Shown in pieces: positions 12,841 to 32,557 of a stretch of 51,063 nt of DNA. A model generated the notes under the pieces. It was not told where the DNA came from and did no database searches. It worked only from the letters and a program-made list of their open reading frames with translations. The translations under genes and the position numbers were made by a program. The stretch comes from Candidatus Fervidifonticultor quintus (GTDB lineage Bacteria > Sysuimicrobiota > Sysuimicrobiia > Sysuimicrobiales > Humicultoraceae): contig JAVKIJ010000013.1 of NCBI GenBank assembly GCA_031459535.1, forward strand, positions 1-51,063, given 5' to 3'. The first letter of the stretch is position 1, and each line of letters opens with the position of its first letter.

Positions 12841-13779
12841 CTACCGGAGGTCGAGGCGGTACCCGATCCCCCGCACGGCCAGGATGCGCACGCCTCCGCG
12901 GGCCTCGACCTTCCTACGCAGCCAGCCCACGTGCGTATCCAGGGTCCGGGAGTCGCCGAAGTAGTCTTCGCCCCACACCTCGCGCAGGAGCCGCTCGCGC
13001 CGGACCACCTTGCCCTGGTGCCTGAGGAGGAGATGCAGCAGGCTGAACTCCTTTGCGGTAAGCGGAACCGGCTCGCCGGCCACCGTGGTCTCGTGACGCT
13101 CGGTGTCCATGACGAGGCGGCCAGCCACGAGCCGGTGATCGGCCCCGGTCCGCATGACGAGGCCTTCGAGGACGTTGGCGATGTCCTCGCACCGGTCGGT
13201 GCCGGTCTCGAGCATCTCGCAGATGTCTTTCCACTTGATGATTTCCCGGGCGTCACGCCGACTGGTGAACAGGGCCTCCAGGGCGTCCCGCAGCAGGTCG
13301 TCTCCGCGGTTCTCCAGGCGGTGCAGGGCACGGGTGTGGGAGAACACCTCGCGCCCGCTGCGCGCTTCCTCCAACGCCTGGCTGATCTCCCTGGCGCACT
13401 GCAGCATGACCTCGCCCAGCGCCCGCGCGGTGGGCAGGACGCGACGGATCCGGTGGATGGCCAACCGCGCGGCGGCCGCCTCGATGGCGTCCAGCACGTC
13501 GTCCAGGAATCCGGTCAGGGACTGCAGGGCTTCTCGCTCGCCGGGCGGACCGCCAAGGCGCGCCAGCGCCTCGAAGAGGTCCCGGGCGACCGCGTCGCCC
13601 TTGTGCTCCAGGTCGCGGACAGTCTGCCAGACGCCGTCGAAAGCCGCCCGGGCCTCCAACCCGGCCATCAGGGACTCGGCAGCGTCCAGAATGGCACGGG
13701 CCATCTCTTCGAGCAGCTCGAACTCTCGCTCGAGGACGGACGGAGGAGTGCTGGTGGAGAAGGCCCGAACATCAGCCAT
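12841..13779 (-). CDS. DUF47 (Pit accessory/PhoU-like) domain fused to an OmpR/PhoB-type winged-helix DNA-binding domain
   Basis: N-terminal LEHKGD, LDDVLD, LENRGD, IIKWKDICEMLETGTDRCED; C-terminal LTAKEFSLL, LLREVWG, SRTLDTHVGWLRRK, VRGIGYR. Confidence 0.88.
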   Translation of the reverse strand: MADVRAFSTSTPPSVLEREFELLEEMARAILDAAESLMAGLEARAAFDGVWQTVRDLEHKGDAVARDLFEALARLGGPPGEREALQSLTGFLDDVLDAIEAAAARLAIHRIRRVLPTARALGEVMLQCAREISQALEEARSGREVFSHTRALHRLENRGDDLLRDALEALFTSRRDAREIIKWKDICEMLETGTDRCEDIANVLEGLVMRTGADHRLVAGRLVMDTERHETTVAGEPVPLTAKEFSLLHLLLRHQGKVVRRERLLREVWGEDYFGDSRTLDTHVGWLRRKVEARGGVRILAVRGIGYRLDLR

Positions 13780-13816
13780 GCTGCATTGAGCATACCACGC
13801 CCGCGGCGCGGGCGCG

Positions 13817-14950
13817 CTAGCCGTAGAGCGGCAACGGGTGCGGTCGCAGCGCGTCGCCGATGCGGCGGCGAACGCCCTCAAAGACCTCCAGATCGTATTG
13901 CCCCACGAACGTGATGGCCTCGCCCCGGCGACCGGCGCGAGCCGTGCGTCCCACCCGGTGCACGTAGGTGTCCAGGTCTTCCGGCACGTCGTAGTTAATG
14001 ACGTGGGAGACATCGGGCAGGTCCAGACCCCGCGAGGCCACATTGGTGGCGACCAACACCCGGGCCTGCCCCGCGGCGAACGCCGCAAGGGCGCGTAGCC
14101 GGGCCCCCTGGGTCATGTCACCGTGCAGGACCTCGGCGTGCACCCCGCGCTCCCGCAGGACCTTCGCCAGGCGATCCACCCCCCGCCGCGTGCGCCGGAA
14201 GACCAGGGCCGACGGCACCTCGCCGCTGGTCAGCAGCAGCCGCAGCGCCCGCACCTTGTCCTGCTCGGCCACTTCCAGGAAGTACTGGGTGACGGTTTGG
14301 ACGGTCGGCGCTGGCGCCGCGATCCTGATCCAGACCGGGCGCCGCAGGTACCGGACCGCCAGGCTGGAGATGGCATCGGGCAGGGTCGCCGAGAAGAGCG
14401 CGGTCTGGCGGGCCGCCGGCGTCTGACGGATGATGGCCTCCACATCGGGCAGGAACCCCATGTCCAGCATCCGGTCGGCTTCGTCCAGCACCAGGAAGCG
14501 GATTGCGTCGAGGCGCACACTGCCGCGCCGCAGGTGGTCCAGCAGCCGGCCCGGTGTCGCCACAATCACTTGCACGCCCGCACGCAGCGACGCCAGCTGC
14601 CTTGCCATGGGCTGGCCGCCGTAGAGCGCGGCGGTGCGGAGACGCGATGTGGCCAGCCCGCGGACGACGTCCGAGATCTGGATGGCCAGTTCGCGGGTCG
14701 GGGCCAGGACCAGCGCGCCAGCAGCCCGCGCCCTGCGGTCGAGACGCTCGACCATGGGGATCGCGAAGGCGCCGGTCTTGCCTGAACCGGTCTGCGCCTG
14801 TCCGGCCACGTCGTGGCCGTCCAGCAGCGCGGGAATCGCCTGCGACTGAATCGGGGTGGGTTCGGTCCACCCCAGAGCTGAGATGGCCCGGAGGGTTTCC
14901 GGGCTCAAGGCGAAGCCGCCGAACGCCGCTTCGCGCGTCGAGGTAGAAAT
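13817..14950 (-). CDS. DEAD-box RNA helicase (probable ATT start)
   Basis: PTPIQ, AQTGSGKT, PTRELA, TPGRL, DEAD, SAT, HGD, RGLD, HRVGRTAR. Confidence 0.93.
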   Translation of the reverse strand: MSTSTREAAFGGFALSPETLRAISALGWTEPTPIQSQAIPALLDGHDVAGQAQTGSGKTGAFAIPMVERLDRRARAAGALVLAPTRELAIQISDVVRGLATSRLRTAALYGGQPMARQLASLRAGVQVIVATPGRLLDHLRRGSVRLDAIRFLVLDEADRMLDMGFLPDVEAIIRQTPAARQTALFSATLPDAISSLAVRYLRRPVWIRIAAPAPTVQTVTQYFLEVAEQDKVRALRLLLTSGEVPSALVFRRTRRGVDRLAKVLRERGVHAEVLHGDMTQGARLRALAAFAAGQARVLVATNVASRGLDLPDVSHVINYDVPEDLDTYVHRVGRTARAGRRGEAITFVGQYDLEVFEGVRRRIGDALRPHPLPLYG

Positions 14951-15128
14951 AGACTTGACCTCCGCTGGACCCGGGAGCCCCGGGTCGAATGTGAGCCGGC
15001 ATCCTGCGCGTGCCCGCCGGTCCACCCGACCCTGGTGAGGACGAACGCTGGGACACACGAAACGGGCGGTGTCATCACGTCAACATCGCCCGTCCCACAA
15101 CGCAACTATGTCGACTACAAACAGGCTA

Positions 15129-19639: not shown

Positions 19640-21184
19640 CTATCGCTCAAGCCAGGTCTCCACCAGCGAATAGCCCGAGTAGCGGCCGAGCGGGCCGGGC
19701 CAGTGCGTGTAGCCTTTCACGTAGGTGCGCGCCGACTCGCCCTGGTCACCCCACGCGATGTAGACCCACGGCGCCAGCTCCAGCGCGCGCTCGCCGATCC
19801 TGGCGTAGAGCCCTTTGCGGATCGTCTGGTTGTTGACCACCCGGGCCTGCGCCAGCAGCTGGTCCAGCACCTCGTCCTTGAACCCGATCTGCCTGGCGTA
19901 GTAGATCCGATCGGACTGATAGAAATCCGAGAGGAAGTCAGGATCGTTGACAGCCGCGGTCAAACCGCGGACCTGCGCGCCATAGTCTCCCTCATTGTGC
20001 CGTTTGAGTACCACCGGCCACTCGGGCAGTTCCAGCTGCACCTGAATGCCAACCTTGGCAAGCTGCGCCTGCAGGACCTGAGAGGTCCGCGTGTGGAGGC
20101 TGTACGTGATGGGCGCCAGCAGCGTAATCTGCAGCCCATGGGGATAGCCGGCCTCGGCCAGCAGGCGCCTGGCCCTCTCCGGATCGTACTGGTACTTGCC
20201 TTCCAGGGCTTCGTTGAAGGCCCACCAGCCCTTGGGGATTACGTCGCCGGTAATAGGCCGGCCGCGTCCGTCGAAGATGGTCTTGACCACCGCGTCTCTG
20301 TCGATGGCGTACGCGACGGCCTGGCGCAGTTTCACGTTGTCGTAGGGCTTGCGCGACGTATTGAAGATCACGCACATGAAGATCCCCACGTCGGCGTGCA
20401 GGCGCAGGCGCGGGTCGCGCTGGATGGCGTTCATCTGCTCCTGCGGAGTGAAATCCATGATCATGATGTCGCCAGCCCGCAGCGCGGTGAGCCGCGTCTG
20501 ATCATCCGCAAAGGGAATGAAGTCGATGCCGTCCAAGTACGGGAGGCCCTTCTGCCAGTAGTCCGGGTTGCGCACCAGCTTGACCGCCCGGCCGGGTTCC
20601 CACGACACGAACTTGAACGGACCGGTGCCCATCATGGTCGCCCGCAGGTTGACGCCTGCCTGCACGAACCGGCGGCTCACGATGGCCGCATAAGGCTGTG
20701 CCAGGTAGGCCAGCAGCGGCGAGTAGGGTTGTCGCAGCACCACCTTGACCGTCAGGGGATCCATGACCTCCACAGACTGGATGAGGGACAGCGGCCCCCG
20801 CAGCGACGCGCCGGTGCGCGGGTCGAGGATGCGCTCCAGGGAGAACTTGACGTCGTCGGCGGTTACGGGATCACCATTATGGAACTTCACGTCCCGGCGC
20901 AGGTGGAACACGATCTGGGTCTGCCCCACGAACCCCCAGCGCTCGGCCAGCGCGGGCACGATCCTGCCGCCGTGCCAGTACTTCACCAGACCCTCGTAGA
21001 CGGCCATCTTGACCGTACCGTTGCTGGCGCCGGAGTTGATGTGGGGTTCCAGGTCAGGTGGGTCCACGGAGAGCCCGTAGACCAGTGTTCCTCCCCGTCG
21101 CGGCGACTCGGGCGCTGCCGGCGACCACCCGCTTACGGCCACGACCACCACGGCGGCCATCATGAGAACCAGACCCTGCTTCAT
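19640..21184 (-). CDS. ABC transporter substrate-binding protein, family 5
   Basis: Signal peptide, RGGTL, PALAERW, LRRDVKFHNG, GTGPF, LRQAVAYAIDR. Confidence 0.93.
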   Translation of the reverse strand: MKQGLVLMMAAVVVVAVSGWSPAAPESPRRGGTLVYGLSVDPPDLEPHINSGASNGTVKMAVYEGLVKYWHGGRIVPALAERWGFVGQTQIVFHLRRDVKFHNGDPVTADDVKFSLERILDPRTGASLRGPLSLIQSVEVMDPLTVKVVLRQPYSPLLAYLAQPYAAIVSRRFVQAGVNLRATMMGTGPFKFVSWEPGRAVKLVRNPDYWQKGLPYLDGIDFIPFADDQTRLTALRAGDIMIMDFTPQEQMNAIQRDPRLRLHADVGIFMCVIFNTSRKPYDNVKLRQAVAYAIDRDAVVKTIFDGRGRPITGDVIPKGWWAFNEALEGKYQYDPERARRLLAEAGYPHGLQITLLAPITYSLHTRTSQVLQAQLAKVGIQVQLELPEWPVVLKRHNEGDYGAQVRGLTAAVNDPDFLSDFYQSDRIYYARQIGFKDEVLDQLLAQARVVNNQTIRKGLYARIGERALELAPWVYIAWGDQGESARTYVKGYTHWPGPLGRYSGYSLVETWLER

Positions 21185-21801
21185 CGTTGTCCCTCCCCGC
21201 GGATCGCGTCGATCTCATCCAGCGTCGCCCCTGACAGCAGGTACCGCCGCGTGGCGGCCTCACGGTCCATGGCGGCTTCGCCGCGTTCCAGGACGGCCTC
21301 GATCCGTCCTGCGGGAATCACCAGCACACCGTCATCGTCACCGAGCACGTAGTCCCCGGGCGCCACGCGCACGCCGCCGCAGGTGATGGGTTCTCCTACC
21401 GTGCCGCCCAGGTGGAGCCGCCGGGTGGTGAGCGCTGAGACACCCAGGCTGAAGACGGGCAGGCCCAGCTCGGTGAGCTCTGCCAGATCGGTGCACGGGC
21501 CGTCGAGCACGGCGCCCGCAATACCTGCGTTGCGGGCCGCCAGGGCGAGCAGGCCGCCGAACGACCCGTGTCGCACGTCGCCGTTACGGTGGATCACCAG
21601 GACCTCGCCGGGCTTCGCCTGGCGGATCGCCTGGCGGTAGATGGCGTTGTCGCGGGGAGGCGCGCTGACGGTCAGCGCCCGGCCGGCGAGCTTCACGGGT
21701 CGGAAGACCGGCCGGATCTGCGGATCCAGAAACCCCTCGTCGATGAAGTGGCCCAGGGTTGAAGTCGCCATGCGACTCAGCCGCGCCACACTGGGATCCA
21801 T
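21181..21801 (-). CDS. RraA/HMG-aldolase family protein
   Basis: GRALTV, PGEVLVI, FGGLLA, GAVLDG, PGDYVLGDDDGV. Confidence 0.88.
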   Translation of the reverse strand: MDPSVARLSRMATSTLGHFIDEGFLDPQIRPVFRPVKLAGRALTVSAPPRDNAIYRQAIRQAKPGEVLVIHRNGDVRHGSFGGLLALAARNAGIAGAVLDGPCTDLAELTELGLPVFSLGVSALTTRRLHLGGTVGEPITCGGVRVAPGDYVLGDDDGVLVIPAGRIEAVLERGEAAMDREAATRRYLLSGATLDEIDAIRGEGQR

Positions 21802-21819
21802 GCGTCCCTCCCCGTTGCC

Positions 21820-23577
21820 TCAGCCTTCTTCGCAGACGCCGGCCCCGGCTGAGGGCGTTGACGCGGACACGCCCAGCACCTCGAAGCCCATGGCCCGACC
21901 GCGCTCGATGAAGTACTCCACGTTCTCGGCATTGGTCCTCTCGCCGAGGCTCGCCCGATCGTGCTGCCCGTCGAGGGCGAGGATCACGGTTTCTGCCAGG
22001 CACGCCGGCACCAGACCCTGTCCGTATCCCAGATCCAGTTGCCCGCGCGGATCGCCCGGCAACCGGACAACCCCGCCAGGAATCAGCTCGACGTCTGGAA
22101 CCTGCCTCACCGAGGGGTGCACATCGGGTGGCCGCCCCAGATCGAAGATCACGCACCCGGGCCGCACGTGCTCCGGAAAGATCACGGGCCGGGAAGCGGA
22201 CGTGGCGCTGAAGATCACGTCGGCTCCCCGCAAGGCGTCGTAGTTCGTCGTCACATCCACCTCCGTGCGGGGGGAACGCTTCCGCAGCAGATCGCGGGAT
22301 CGGGCGAGCCGCTCCTGATCCGTCCCGAGCATGATCAGCCGGCCCACGTACTCGATGATCGAGCGGCAGATGCCGAAGCCGACAACGCCGTTGGCGCCGA
22401 CCACCGCCGCAGTGGCGCGTGCAGGATCCACCCCGCGTTGCCGGAGCCGCTCCAGGACCAGCGGCACCGCCAGTTTCATCGTGCCGGCCGTATACGCGCC
22501 GCCGTTGGTGATCGTGATCGGGGAGTGCGCCGCCACCTCCAGCCCTTTGTTGCCGACCACCGACCAGTAGGCGCCCAGGCCCAGCACCGTGGCGCCCAGG
22601 CTTGCGGCCAGATCGGCCGCCTGCACGGCACGACGCTGGGCCAGCGCCGGCTCCGAACGGATCTGATCGGGCATCATGGGCACGCCGATGAGGTAGACCC
22701 GGGCGCGCCGGCCGTCGGCGGTCACGATGGGGTAGATGTCGTCCACCTTCATCGGCCGCACCAGGCGCGCCAGCCGGCGGACGCTCCCGACATGGATCAG
22801 GCCCAGACGGCGCAGCGGCACCAGCCAGCGGAACCGTCGGGCCTGCACGATGTCGTCAAGGCTCATGGGGTGGATCATGAACGCGGCTACGGCCTCTCGT
22901 CCCTGGGGACCCGGCAGAGGCAGGTTCTCGCCGACCCGCGGCTCCACACCGTCGGCGACGCGCAACAGGTGTTCCTTGTGGTTCCAGAAGGTGACCAGCC
23001 CGTAGATGAGCGTCAGGAAGACGTACGGGGAGGGCGCGTCGAGTACGGTCAGTGCCACAGGGAGCGCCCAGGCGGCCAGGACGGTGGCTACGGACAGGTA
23101 CCCCCAGCGGCGTCCGGTCAGCCGCGGCAGCGTCAGCGCCAGCGCCGCAACACCCAGCGCCACCAGCAGCGCCGCCGCCGGAATCGCGCGCCACGCGACC
23201 AGCCCCACCAGCACGCCAAGGGTGGTGATCGTGCCCTTCATTCGGGTGGCCACCCGCGGTCCCATCCGCACAAACGGCGAAGCGGTATGTCCCCCGATGG
23301 CGGCGGCACCTGCCAGGCTAAGCACCCAGTCGGTCCCCGACAGCCACCGGGCCAGCCCCACGGCCAGCGCGCCCTTGATGAGGTCGAGCGCTGTGACCAC
23401 GACCAGGGTCGGGGCGCCGGCCGCGGCGGCCACGGTGCCCAGGCCCAGGTTGTGGGGCGAGACGCGGCGGATGTCTACCCCGCGCAGCTTGCGGGCCAGC
23501 AGATAGCCGGTGGGCAGGCTCCCGAGGAGACCGGCCAGTGCCAGCGCAAGGAACGCGCTCACGCGCACGGCACCCAT
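21820..23577 (-). CDS. PlsY-like membrane domain fused to an acyl-ACP reductase-like NAD(P)-binding domain
   Basis: N-terminal LLGSLPTG, GVDIR, DLIKG, GHT, NHKEHLLR; C-terminal FMIHP, LGLGAY, TNGGAYT, VVGANGVVG, DLGRP, PACLAE. Confidence 0.82.
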   Translation of the reverse strand: MGAVRVSAFLALALAGLLGSLPTGYLLARKLRGVDIRRVSPHNLGLGTVAAAAGAPTLVVVTALDLIKGALAVGLARWLSGTDWVLSLAGAAAIGGHTASPFVRMGPRVATRMKGTITTLGVLVGLVAWRAIPAAALLVALGVAALALTLPRLTGRRWGYLSVATVLAAWALPVALTVLDAPSPYVFLTLIYGLVTFWNHKEHLLRVADGVEPRVGENLPLPGPQGREAVAAFMIHPMSLDDIVQARRFRWLVPLRRLGLIHVGSVRRLARLVRPMKVDDIYPIVTADGRRARVYLIGVPMMPDQIRSEPALAQRRAVQAADLAASLGATVLGLGAYWSVVGNKGLEVAAHSPITITNGGAYTAGTMKLAVPLVLERLRQRGVDPARATAAVVGANGVVGFGICRSIIEYVGRLIMLGTDQERLARSRDLLRKRSPRTEVDVTTNYDALRGADVIFSATSASRPVIFPEHVRPGCVIFDLGRPPDVHPSVRQVPDVELIPGGVVRLPGDPRGQLDLGYGQGLVPACLAETVILALDGQHDRASLGERTNAENVEYFIERGRAMGFEVLGVSASTPSAGAGVCEEG

Positions 23578-23642
23578 CGCTGTAACGTCGTGGCGTCCCT
23601 CACCGCAGGCCCCGTACGGAGGTAATCGCGCCGCAGACGGCG

Positions 23643-25758
<2,116 letters not shown>

Positions 25759-31432: not shown

Positions 31433-32017
31433 ATGAGACGGGTCGGGGCCGCTGGCGCACTTCTGGCGATCGCCGGTCTCCTCGCGGGAGGTGCCGGTGG
31501 GCAGGAGGTGCTCCAGAGTCCTTACGCGGTCACGCCGCCTGACATCGACGGCGTCGTCGGAGAAGACGAGTGGCGGGCAGCGACTCGCCTGACCTTGCCC
31601 AGCCGCGACGGGAGTGCGCAGTGCGTCTTCCTTATCATGAACGATACGAAGCGGCTCTACGTGGGTGTCGACGCCATCCACGACATCACCAACACCACGG
31701 CGTCCAGCCCTCTCCACAGCGGCTTCGACAACATGGCCATCTGGTTCAAGGGCGAGGTCGGCTACTGGCTCTACGGCGACGGCCGGCTGCGCACGGGGCG
31801 CGACGATGGGCCCGCAGCGCGCCACATGATATACGAGCTGTCGGTCCCATTGGAGGAGATCGGGGTTGCACCCGGCGGGACGGTGGCCACCGGATTGCAC
31901 TACTGGGACAACTACGACCGTGGCCCCAGCTTCTGGTGCCGCGGAACGTGGGCGTGTTCCTTCCAGAGAGGTACGGGCGGCTGGCTATCAGCCAGAAGCC
32001 GTGAGAACGGACCATAG
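31433..32017 (+). CDS. Secreted DOMON/CBM9-like protein, probably frameshifted near 31937
   Basis: Signal peptide; PDIDGVVGEDEW, MNDTKRLYVGV, YELSVPL. Confidence 0.7.
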   Translation: MRRVGAAGALLAIAGLLAGGAGGQEVLQSPYAVTPPDIDGVVGEDEWRAATRLTLPSRDGSAQCVFLIMNDTKRLYVGVDAIHDITNTTASSPLHSGFDNMAIWFKGEVGYWLYGDGRLRTGRDDGPAARHMIYELSVPLEEIGVAPGGTVATGLHYWDNYDRGPSFWCRGTWACSFQRGTGGWLSARSRENGP

Positions 32018-32056
32018 CTGAAGGTGGAACACTGCCATGATGCGCGGGCCGGTGCC

Positions 32057-32557
32057 ATGACCACGGGACATCGCGCACGCCGCTGCCTCGCGACGGTGGC
32101 CGTCGCAATCAGTCTCACAGTGCTCACGCCACTGAGCCCCGCCACGGCGGCCGCCGAACCTCCACTTCCTGAGGTAGTACGGTTGGTCGAGACGTTCGTC
32201 GACGCCTTGAACAAGCGGGACGGCAAGCTGCTCGCATCGCTGTATGCATACGCTCCCCACAGTCTGTGCACTGACCTGGACATCTTGACCTTCAACGAGG
32301 TCACGGGACAGGAGCCGCTGGCCCTCAAGGAACTCACGAAGAGCCAGGCCAGCCTGAGCGGCGCGCCGGGAACGGCGGCCTTGCCGACCGGAGGGTTCAT
32401 CGTGGACTTCGGGCTGATGTGGACCTACCAGCTCAAGGGCGAGATTGAGGAACGGACCCTGCACGTGAGGGTGCAATGGCGCATCGAGCAGCAAGGCGGC
32501 ACATATAAGGTCGTCACGCAGAAGACGACGGACCTCGACCATGACTCCGCCTGCTGA
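32057..32557 (+). CDS. Secreted hypothetical protein (possibly NTF2-like fold)
   Basis: Signal peptide ending ATAAA; LVETFVDALNKRD helix; C-terminal beta strands ending WRIEQQGGTYKVV. Confidence 0.65.
   Translation: MTTGHRARRCLATVAVAISLTVLTPLSPATAAAEPPLPEVVRLVETFVDALNKRDGKLLASLYAYAPHSLCTDLDILTFNEVTGQEPLALKELTKSQASLSGAPGTAALPTGGFIVDFGLMWTYQLKGEIEERTLHVRVQWRIEQQGGTYKVVTQKTTDLDHDSAC

Follow-up and report, generated by a model that had tools for sequence, protein, structure and literature searches.

In the cyanobacterial acyl-ACP reductase AAR, the acyl group is, as set out in PMC7089970, moved onto Cys294 before a hydride is taken from NADPH; the ADP part of NADPH is sandwiched between the dinucleotide loop and a second loop, VASM 222-225, and its extra phosphate is held by R189, R193, and R314. 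PigE's N-terminal domain turns a thioester into an aldehyde that is then transaminated (PMC8341465). For PlsY of Aquifex, an acyltransferase acting on glycerol-3-phosphate (G3P), PMC5700162 describes a G3P phosphate clamp made of Ser35, Arg45, Lys104, and Asn180, with Ser142 and His177 holding the 2-hydroxyl of G3P, with the acyl-phosphate held by His92, Thr41 (which binds the carbonyl), and the loop-3 backbone, and with Asn37 stabilizing the oxyanion; alanine mutants of the clamp lost more than 92% of the activity, R45K lost more than 90%, and N180H almost abolished it. Here we analyzed a single gene that joins a domain of the PlsY fold to one of the AAR/PigE fold, encoded in a 51,063-nucleotide stretch of DNA from Candidatus (Ca.) Fervidifonticultor quintus (contig JAVKIJ010000013.1; the whole stretch is hereafter called the window). 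We found that the fusion is one old, conserved family, and we argue that it probably starts an unusual membrane-lipid pathway.

The gene runs along the minus strand of the window at 21820..23577 as an uninterrupted open reading frame (ORF), with its ATG at 23577 and its stop at 21820, encoding 585 amino acids plus the stop, and its third-position GC content of 0.86 is similar to that of the neighboring genes. The product is a two-domain cytoplasmic-membrane protein, composed of a PlsY-fold membrane half (residues 8-216; 22930..23556), a short linker (residues 217-229; 22891..22929), and a cytoplasmic half of the AAR/PigE-N type of thioester reductase (residues 230-570; 21868..22890), all on the minus strand. 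Pfam matched residues 17-206 to PF02660 (G3P_acyltransf) with 82.4 bits, a family-level match above the cut-off of 24.1 bits, and residues 389-499 to the Rossmann family PF01488 with 31.4 bits. Among the NCBIfam models, positions 4-325 of the 837 in the PigE model NF053554 matched residues 233-557 (112.4 bits), the PlsY model TIGR00023 gave 73.6 bits (equivalog cut-off 137.2 bits), and the AAR model TIGR04058 gave 51.6 bits (equivalog cut-off 449.7 bits), such that all three scores lay under their equivalog cut-offs. Compared with solved structures, the sequence aligned to PigE (4ppm) at an E value of 5e-19, to AAR (6jzq) at 3e-13, and to Aquifex PlsY (5xj5) at 3e-12; an alignment to 5xj5 over residues 8-216 provides the PlsY residue numbering that we use. 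An AlphaFold2 single-chain model with an input of 99 family members had a mean predicted local distance difference test score (pLDDT) of 91.9 and a predicted template modeling score (pTM) of 0.90, with dips only at the linker (block pLDDT 79) and over the last 13 residues, and it predicts that the halves hold one fixed mutual arrangement. A complex prediction on the two separated halves returned "no answer" with a score of 0.00, which is not evidence either way.

Foldseek searches of the PDB yielded target-based template modeling scores, TM(target), of 0.77 for AAR (6jzu), 0.78 for PlsY (5xj5), and 0.27 for glutamyl-tRNA reductase, as well as 0.58-0.67 between the C-terminal half and the carmabin TAD domain. 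Taken together, the profiles, structure alignments, and AlphaFold2/Foldseek results bore out both domain assignments of an earlier, sequence-only reading of the window, and each of the motif strings quoted there is present in the ORF at residues that we located in the translation, among them FMIHP (233-237), LGLGAY (332-337), and TNGGAYT (357-363) in the C-terminal half. That reading had named, as the case that would speak against it, a C-terminus nearer to glutamyl-tRNA or shikimate reductases. The hemA models gave 18-25 bits, as compared to 112 for PigE and 52 for AAR; hence, the reductase half is much closer to AAR and PigE-N, and the NCBIfam scores together with the TM(target) values rule out a glutamyl-tRNA or shikimate reductase relative.

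The reductase half retains what the AAR fold uses for catalysis. Cys526 (22000-22002), in the motif PACLAE (residues 524-529; 21991..22008), aligns with the catalytic Cys294 of AAR and with Cys296 of PigE and is invariant in the family; it sits at the same helix start, ACxAE, that carries the catalytic Cys in AAR, in line with the earlier assignment of a catalytic Cys to an ACxAE-type motif. Both AAR loop features are present as well: alignment to solved structures and conservation place the dinucleotide-binding loop at GANGVVG (residues 394-400; 22378..22398), and alignment to 6jzq and conservation place the VASM-type loop at ATS (residues 458-460; 22198..22206). Across 74 family members, these two loops, the D479-G481-P483-D485 segment, G501-G502, and P524-A525-C526 are each conserved at a level of at least 97%, the same reductase motifs are retained in distant PlsY fusions, and the position of AAR Tyr247 is taken by an invariant Arg (R482 in the window protein). 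At this level of conservation, 108 positions were counted, with 18 in residues 1-216, one in the linker, and 89 in residues 230-570. As 89 of the 108 fall in the latter, the reductase half is the more constrained half, with all redox-related motifs retained.

The PlsY-like half, by contrast, has a rebuilt active site. In motif 1, which reads SPHNLGLGT (residues 40-48; 23434..23460), alignment to Aquifex PlsY showed Ser35 replaced by Pro41, Gly36 by His42, Thr41 by Gly47, and Asn42 by Thr48, with Asn37 kept as Asn43; three residues beyond the motif, Arg45 is replaced by Ala51. The motif-2 Asp/Lys of PlsY are retained, and His92, the side chain of the acyl-phosphate "phosphate hole", is kept as His97 (23287..23289) and is invariant across the fusion family. 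In loop 3, RMKGTITT (residues 112-119; 23221..23244), Gly102 has become Arg112, a hallmark of the family, Gly103 has become Met, and Lys104 is kept as Lys114, while in motif 3, WNHKEHLLR (22960..22986; NHKEHLLR at residues 199-206), His177 is kept as His200 and Asn180 is replaced by His203. Thus, only Lys104 is retained among the four residues of the G3P phosphate clamp, and of the acyl-phosphate and oxyanion residues, His92 and Asn37 have kept equivalents and Thr41 has not. In the 18 rows of the window clade, Asn180 and Gly36 are His in 18/18 each, Arg45 is kept in 1/18, and the positions equivalent to Thr41 and Arg45 are variable. The changes G36H/Y and G102R are family-wide gains of cationic residues beside the phosphate sites that predate the loss of the old clamp. 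Because three of the four clamp residues are lost, including through N180H, we infer that the PlsY-like half of the window lineage is not an ordinary G3P acyltransferase, for which the altered motifs had already been taken to argue in the sequence-only reading; as the phosphate-hole His, the oxyanion Asn, and a cationic cluster are kept, it probably still handles a phosphorylated ligand.

We found both halves to be under purifying selection. In a codon analysis of 16 fusion genes from Ca. Sysuimicrobiota, the phylum of the window, where many pairs had a synonymous divergence (dS) near 1, the ratio of nonsynonymous to synonymous divergence (ω) in the closer pairs lay at 0.20-0.30 in the PlsY-like half and, lower still, at 0.08-0.17 in the reductase half, and with ω this low, the PlsY-like half is functional. 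The median ratio of nonsynonymous divergence between the N- and C-terminal halves, dN(N)/dN(C), was 1.95 for 45 pairs of genomes that have the fusion only, versus 2.05 for 10 pairs that also have PlsX and PlsY. The constraint on the PlsY-like half is therefore unchanged by the loss of the canonical pathway, which points to a function that is non-redundant with that of PlsY. Within clades, the ratio of identity in the PlsY-like half to that in the reductase half was 0.78 in the window clade, 0.75 in Thermaceae, 0.83 in Deinococcus, and 0.96 in a group that we call clade B (loci L025-L030 and L036).

The family is widespread. A word-indexed search returned 308 homologs, and the 120 matches listed were full-length fusions or fragments thereof, down to 47% identity, carrying the database labels "glycerol-3-phosphate acyltransferase" or "predicted amino acid dehydrogenase". 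A species-level scan, with one genome per species and most of the compared genomes being metagenome-assembled genomes (MAGs), gave 148 loci. Among the best 80 of these 148, 44 were labeled Deinococcus, Deinococcaceae, Thermus, Meiothermus, or Thermaceae, and the remainder Ca. Fervidifonticultor, Ca. Thermofontivivens, Thermaerobacter, or "Armatimonadota", Bacillota, and "Actinomycetota" MAGs. Genome scans also confirmed the fusions that the sequence-only reading had suggested for Deinococcota: when 151 sampled genomes were queried with the C-terminal half, 149 gave matches with E <= 1e-20, which with few exceptions lay in open frames of ~560-650 amino acids. In a quick maximum-likelihood tree of 68 fusion C-domains and 6 stand-alone paralogs, from which 6 of the 74 fusion sequences were omitted as their domain start was missed by the search pattern, all fusions formed one clade far from the stand-alone forms, with the nearest relatives of the window protein labeled Ca. 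Sysuimicrobiota. We found no published description of a PlsY-AAR fusion in literature searches on PlsY with acyl-ACP reductase, on COG5322, and, for papers since 2015, on alkylamine lipids.

An exhaustive profile search divided the fusions into Group I, with ~10 clusters of the window kind (G36H/Y, G102R, GANGVVG), and Group II, made up of more distant fusions in ~32 clusters with a canonical PlsY half, and also recovered stand-alone forms of the AAR-like domain. In a rough FastTree, Group I lay beside one Group II branch and another Group II branch lay among the stand-alone forms, on which basis the fusion may, tentatively, have arisen more than once. Other partners of the AAR-like domain were SRPBCC lipid-binding domains, class-III aminotransferases, and an unassigned 300-amino-acid domain, and four longer relatives were adenylation-carrier-reductase-aminotransferase proteins; a triple fusion of PlsY, reductase, and aminotransferase was not seen among the longer relatives inspected, which is weak evidence. 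In the SRPBCC (Polyketide_cyc) fusions (P0179, P0184, P0186, P0196, and P0202), one of which has a PilZ domain in front, the architecture points to transfer of the reductase product to lipid carriers and to possible control by cyclic di-GMP.

Clade B shows what the family may have looked like at its origin. Its PlsY half keeps Ser35, Thr41, Asn42, Arg45, Lys104, His177, and Asn180, scores 147-154 bits, and is the sole PF02660 match in 6/6 genomes, of which four have a full-length PlsX, one has a fragmented PlsX, and one gave no PlsX match. Deinococcota (two genomes checked) and Thermaerobacter, for their part, carry the fusion beside a higher-scoring stand-alone PlsY and PlsX. In 43 Deinococcota-labeled rows, Ser35 is kept in 1, His177 in 0, Arg45 in 36, and Asn180 in 42, and Glu stands at the Thr41 position in 42, a pattern of decay of the G3P site that differs from that of the window clade. 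To judge from the residue patterns, the canonical residues of clade B must be ancestral, and the first fusion therefore joined a working PlsY to a reductase-like domain; loss of the G3P site came later, in separate events that took different forms in Bacillota, Sysuimicrobiota, and Deinococcota. PlsY-like proteins have further diversified in Thermaceae, as one Thermus genome (locus L073) has four PF02660 matches, namely a canonical PlsY, a paralog in a 181-amino-acid frame, the fusion, and a weak match inside a 415-amino-acid frame.

The gene content of Ca. Sysuimicrobiota, sampled in 61 genomes of a single order (the window genome, G000, being 88.85% complete and the remainder at least 90%), shows the fusion both with and without the canonical enzymes PlsX and PlsY that start phospholipid synthesis. 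The fusion occurs in 21 of the 61 genomes, one copy having an internal TGA, and one further genome has only fusion fragments with stops. Canonical PlsY is absent from 12 of the 21 (G000, G008, G009, G010, G016, G017, G020, G026, G031, G032, G035, and G036); in 8 of these 12 the fusion is the sole PF02660 match, several near-complete relatives of the window genome thus having no other PlsY-family gene, and the other 4 carry a short atypical paralog. PlsX was found in 0/12 of these genomes, in 9/9 of the other fusion genomes, and in 37/40 non-fusion genomes; without G036 and the non-fusion genome G018, which are unpublished records, the first and last counts become 0/11 and 36/39. As related genomes are not independent, the PlsX losses may amount to as few as two or three events, in several genera of one family and in one genome of another. 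Five genomes that have the fusion without PlsX or canonical PlsY were tested further: none had PlsB over the cut-off or the fatty-acid kinase component DegV/FakB, all five had CdsA, and each had 2-4 PlsC-type enzymes, compared to 2-5 (no fewer) in five relatives with the canonical system. GpsA (PF07479), considered as a test of the acceptor, was rejected, as it occurs in 5/61 genomes irrespective of category and does not discriminate between the groups.

The check for a separate canonical plsY that the sequence-only reading had proposed turned up none in the window genome, which has only a GDGN-type atypical paralog. This other PlsY-family gene, at L001:1417-2019 (minus strand) on contig C37, carries GDGN..GGQG motifs and no His177/Asn180 motif, and its TIGR00023 score is 109 bits (cut-off 137); it adjoins an ORF (L001:3-1022) that by eye resembles a group II intron reverse transcriptase in translation, and G020, G026, and G036 carry similar short paralogs. 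Across the phylum, the content of lipid genes is patchy. Of the 40 non-fusion genomes, 7 have PlsX without any PlsY-family match. In one of them, G044, no plsY lies within the 3.7 kb after der, the gene that stands before plsY in a relative; in another, G049, the contig ends before the der-plsY site. Given these seven genomes and the intact site in G044, some other, PlsY-independent first-step enzyme probably exists in Ca. Sysuimicrobiota. One genus (3 genomes, 94-99% complete) shows the converse, with PlsY present and no PlsX.

A stand-alone AAR-like paralog occurs in 38 of the 40 non-fusion Ca. Sysuimicrobiota genomes, with a partial contig-end copy in one more, and in none of the 12 fusion genomes that lack PlsX. 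The paralog, 374 amino acids long at L096 (4996-7113; also L097-L101), shares 34-40% identity with the reductase half of the fusion and is nearer to PigE-N and AAR, whose models it matches at 211 and 119 bits, respectively. It is directly preceded in 6/6 loci by an unannotated 325-amino-acid gene, in the order S58 peptidase, ECF S-component, CoaX, 325-amino-acid gene, AAR-like gene, and then GreA and ClpC (the last two identified by eye). Because ~700-amino-acid proteins with an AAR-like domain have an N-terminal part homologous to the 325-amino-acid gene (E 5e-35), this is a second uncharacterized module.

Our preferred reading, which we hold tentatively and a little short of even confidence, is that the fusion is a membrane-bound acyl-thioester reductase whose fatty aldehyde goes into a non-ester lipid, of which the alkylamine lipids of Deinococcota are an example. 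An activated donor, most likely acyl-ACP because the window genome and its closest relatives lack PlsX and fatty-acid kinase, would load Cys526 of the cytoplasmic domain with a long-chain acyl group, and this domain would use NAD(P)H to convert the thioester to a fatty aldehyde, as in every characterized member of the fold. The water-insoluble aldehyde would then pass, at the membrane surface, to the attached PlsY-derived domain, which would not act as an ordinary G3P acyltransferase and would probably still handle a phosphorylated ligand. The product would enter a non-ester lipid, the best candidate by analogy being an alkylamine-type lipid formed after transamination by a separate enzyme, with the glyceroyl-alkylamine phosphoglycolipids of Deinococcus and Thermus as the model. 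We read the C-terminal domain as a reductase because of its homology, its invariant redox motifs, and its being the better-conserved half even beside a separate PlsX and PlsY. That an aldehyde feeds an unusual lipid, as the sequence-only reading had proposed, is plausible by analogy, and the idea gains strength from the gene being almost universal in Deinococcota, whose alkylamine lipids call for just such an enzyme. Deinococcus and Thermus produce N-glyceroyl-alkylamine lipids whose chain-forming enzymes are stated to be unidentified in papers of 2012 and 2022 (PMC9636437, PMC3398001), and the alkylamine lipid has been reported or inferred across Thermaceae genera (PMC3111992). No paper naming the alkylamine-chain genes was found in the literature searched from 2015 on.

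Several observations weigh against this proposal. Of the arginines that hold the NADPH phosphate in AAR, only one in three is kept, with R193 corresponding to the invariant R423, while R189 corresponds to T419 and R314 to E546. No partner enzyme was found, as no neighbor is conserved across clades, and copies of class-III aminotransferases number 5-10 in the fusion-only genera versus 4-16 in non-fusion families, ranges without separation; aminotransferase copy number was accordingly rejected as a partner signal. To our knowledge, no aldehyde, amine, or ether lipid has been described for Ca. Sysuimicrobiota, and the main text of the paper on the phylum does not contain "lipid", "PlsY", or "fatty acid". 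Since the Thr41 and Arg45 positions vary in the window clade, this clade need not share the chemistry of Deinococcota. The proposal also leaves without explanation why the same reductase domain is fused to a fully canonical PlsY in clade B and in the ~32 distant clusters, as well as the source of lysophosphatidate in the 12 genomes that lack both PlsX and canonical PlsY, even though the 5/5 tested among them carry CdsA and PlsC.

These gaps would be filled by a different explanation, which we rate somewhat lower, as a close rival, and which is a serious alternative because of the fusion-only genomes without PlsX and the relatives with a canonical PlsY half: the fusion may be a self-loading acyltransferase, a single protein that replaces PlsX and PlsY. 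Its AAR-like domain would load the acyl group from acyl-ACP onto Cys526, the thioester would be attacked by phosphate rather than hydride, in the manner of glyceraldehyde-3-phosphate dehydrogenase in its second half-reaction, NAD(P) would be bound in a non-redox role, and the PlsY-like half would acylate G3P, or a related acceptor, via a rebuilt clamp of H42, R112, K114, and H203; in a variant, the Cys526 thioester itself would be the donor. Such an enzyme would account for the distribution of PlsX in the phylum (0/12 where canonical PlsY is absent, against 9/9 and 37/40 elsewhere) and for the five tested fusion-only genomes that lack PlsB and DegV/FakB yet have CdsA and 2-4 PlsC-type enzymes. 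It also fits the fully canonical fusion of clade B as the sole PF02660 match in 6/6 genomes, albeit with a full-length PlsX retained in four of these six, and the ~32 further clusters with a canonical PlsY half; the hint of repeated origin in the rough tree, the cationic gains at G36H/Y and G102R before the old clamp was lost, and a pTM of 0.90, compatible with a fixed two-domain machine, point in the same direction. Yet a pure transacylase would not need the NAD(P) motifs, all of which are invariant, and N180H alone nearly abolishes the activity of Aquifex PlsY (PMC5700162). Deinococcota retain the fusion (149/151) even though the two genomes checked also have PlsX and canonical PlsY, and in their fusions the G3P site decays (His177 in 0/43 and Ser35 in 1/43 rows). 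Furthermore, the PlsY-like half is no more constrained where it would be the only acyltransferase, and the 7/40 non-fusion genomes with PlsX but no PlsY family make another first-step enzyme probable.

It seems improbable that the fusion is a two-step synthase of an amide-linked "reverse" lysolipid. The aldehyde from the reductase half would be converted to a fatty amine, and the PlsY half would carry out PlsY chemistry with exchanged roles, taking the soluble acyl phosphate 1,3-bisphosphoglycerate as donor and the membrane-bound alkylamine as nucleophile, giving N-(3-phosphoglyceroyl)alkylamine, a near-isostere of lysophosphatidate. The retained phosphate hole and the Arg102 and His/Tyr36 gained beside the phosphate sites would suit this chemistry, as would the Glu that replaces Thr41 in 42 of 43 Deinococcota-labeled rows, near the donor carbonyl, where it could bind or deprotonate the amine; clade B, however, resembles a normal PlsX-fed PlsY, and the window clade has neither that Glu nor Arg45. 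If true, such a synthase would supply the missing route by which Deinococcus and Thermus form their N-glyceroyl-alkylamine phosphoglycolipids, and it would explain why PlsX and PlsY are dispensable in relatives of the window organism, as PlsC and CdsA could build entire phospholipids on the amide-linked backbone.

Still a little less probable is an acyl-phosphate reductase, with chemistry of the aspartate-semialdehyde dehydrogenase or glutamyl-phosphate reductase type, in which the PlsY-like half binds a PlsX-made acyl-phosphate in the membrane and presents it to Cys526, and the acyl-enzyme is reduced to the aldehyde. The invariant His92 equivalent beside a lost G3P clamp, the very fusion to a PlsY fold, and the presence of PlsX in Deinococcota, Thermaerobacter, and most clade B genomes are accounted for in this way, but Thr41, the binder of the acyl-phosphate carbonyl, is also lost, and acyl-phosphate has no known source in the window genome because PlsX is absent there and in 11 related fusion genomes, and no fatty-acid kinase component was found in the five tested. 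Since the reductase tail is the more conserved half, the protein is unlikely to be simply a PlsY bearing a passive tail, and a pseudogene or chance ORF is ruled out by ω of 0.08-0.3 in close pairs and by the 308 homologs. Whichever of aldehyde formation for a non-ester lipid, which we prefer, or the replacement of PlsX and PlsY proves right, bacterial membrane-lipid biosynthesis would gain a new entry point and the family a function. This bears on how the alkylamine chain of the signature phosphoglycolipid arises in Deinococcus and Thermus and on how bacteria without PlsX, PlsB, or fatty-acid kinase start phospholipid synthesis, the fusion being the one PlsY-type protein that remains in the window genus.

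Around the gene, the window clade shares only housekeeping synteny (prfA, prmC, a tsaC-like gene, rpiB, glyA, and upp). In Thermaceae and Deinococcus the neighbors, identified from sequence starts, include no lipid genes and read as infC, rplT, a nucleosidase-like gene, and IspH. Downstream in the window (21181-21820), an RraA-like gene starts 18 bases past the fusion stop and has a 4-base overlap with the beginning of a peptide ABC transporter operon; with this gap and overlap, the fusion, RraA-like, and transporter genes may be co-transcribed, an arrangement not conserved at the other loci compared. Contigs from a hot-spring RNA-library run cover 22095-22877, 22992-23428, and 23471-23901, as well as the junction with the downstream gene (21635-21867), which is a weak hint that the fusion gene is expressed, as these contigs may represent DNA carry-over. 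Farther away, a minus-strand ORF at 12841-14088 encodes a PhoU-like DUF47 domain together with a winged-helix DNA-binding domain of the OmpR type, with no receiver-domain match listed; its 5' part overlaps a DEAD-box helicase ORF (13817-15058), such that its true start is uncertain. On the plus strand, a 232-amino-acid ORF at 32582-33280 matches only positions 199-352 of the 368 in a family-5 solute-binding protein model and may be a truncated gene, and the two ORFs preceding it (31433-32017 and 32024-32557) have no Pfam match.

Compared with AAR of Synechococcus elongatus (6JZQ/6JZU/6JZY; TIGR04058), the window protein has the same three-part fold, places its Cys where the ACxAE helix begins, and shares both the GxxGxxG and ATS/VASM loops as well as the DxGxPxD segment, but it is only ~24% identical, reaches 51.6 of the 449.7 bits of the equivalog cut-off, has two of the three NADPH-phosphate arginines replaced, and has R482 in place of Tyr247. 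Moreover, AAR is soluble and hands its aldehyde to aldehyde-deformylating oxygenase (ADO), whereas the window reductase is covalently joined to a PlsY-fold membrane domain. PigE-N of the prodigiosin pathway (4PPM; NF053554) is the best sequence relative of the C-terminal half and has the same Cys; it makes an aldehyde from a thioester (PMC8341465), with a class-III aminotransferase on the same chain, while the window protein has no PF00202 match. The N-terminal half shares with Aquifex aeolicus PlsY (5XJ5-5XJ9) the fold, 30% identity, and the residues His92, Asn37, Lys104, and His177, and differs from it in the replacement of Ser35, Arg45, Asn180, and Thr41, in the changes of Gly36 to His and Gly102 to Arg, in a TIGR00023 score under the equivalog cut-off, and in the attached 360-amino-acid reductase domain. 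If the fusion were indeed a replacement for PlsX and PlsY, it would do the same overall job as that route, from acyl-ACP to the first acylated backbone, with no homology to PlsX. A precedent for joining a reductase to an acyltransferase would be ElbD of Myxococcus, a multidomain protein with fatty-acyl reductase and glycerolipid acyltransferase parts that is needed for alkyl ether lipids; its short-chain dehydrogenase/reductase-type reductase, PlsC-type acyltransferase, ligase, and carrier domains belong to families that differ from those of the window fusion. Finally, the terminal amidation domain (TAD) of CarI (9E4S/9E56), as presented in bioRxiv 10.1101/2024.10.28.620694, is ~16% identical to the window protein, works in nonribosomal peptide synthetase/polyketide synthase assembly lines, prefers NAD, and has no membrane domain, yet it has an AAR-like fold, as the window domain does, with an invariant Cys beside the bound NAD, and it shows such a fold in use for off-loading chemistry that involves nitrogen.

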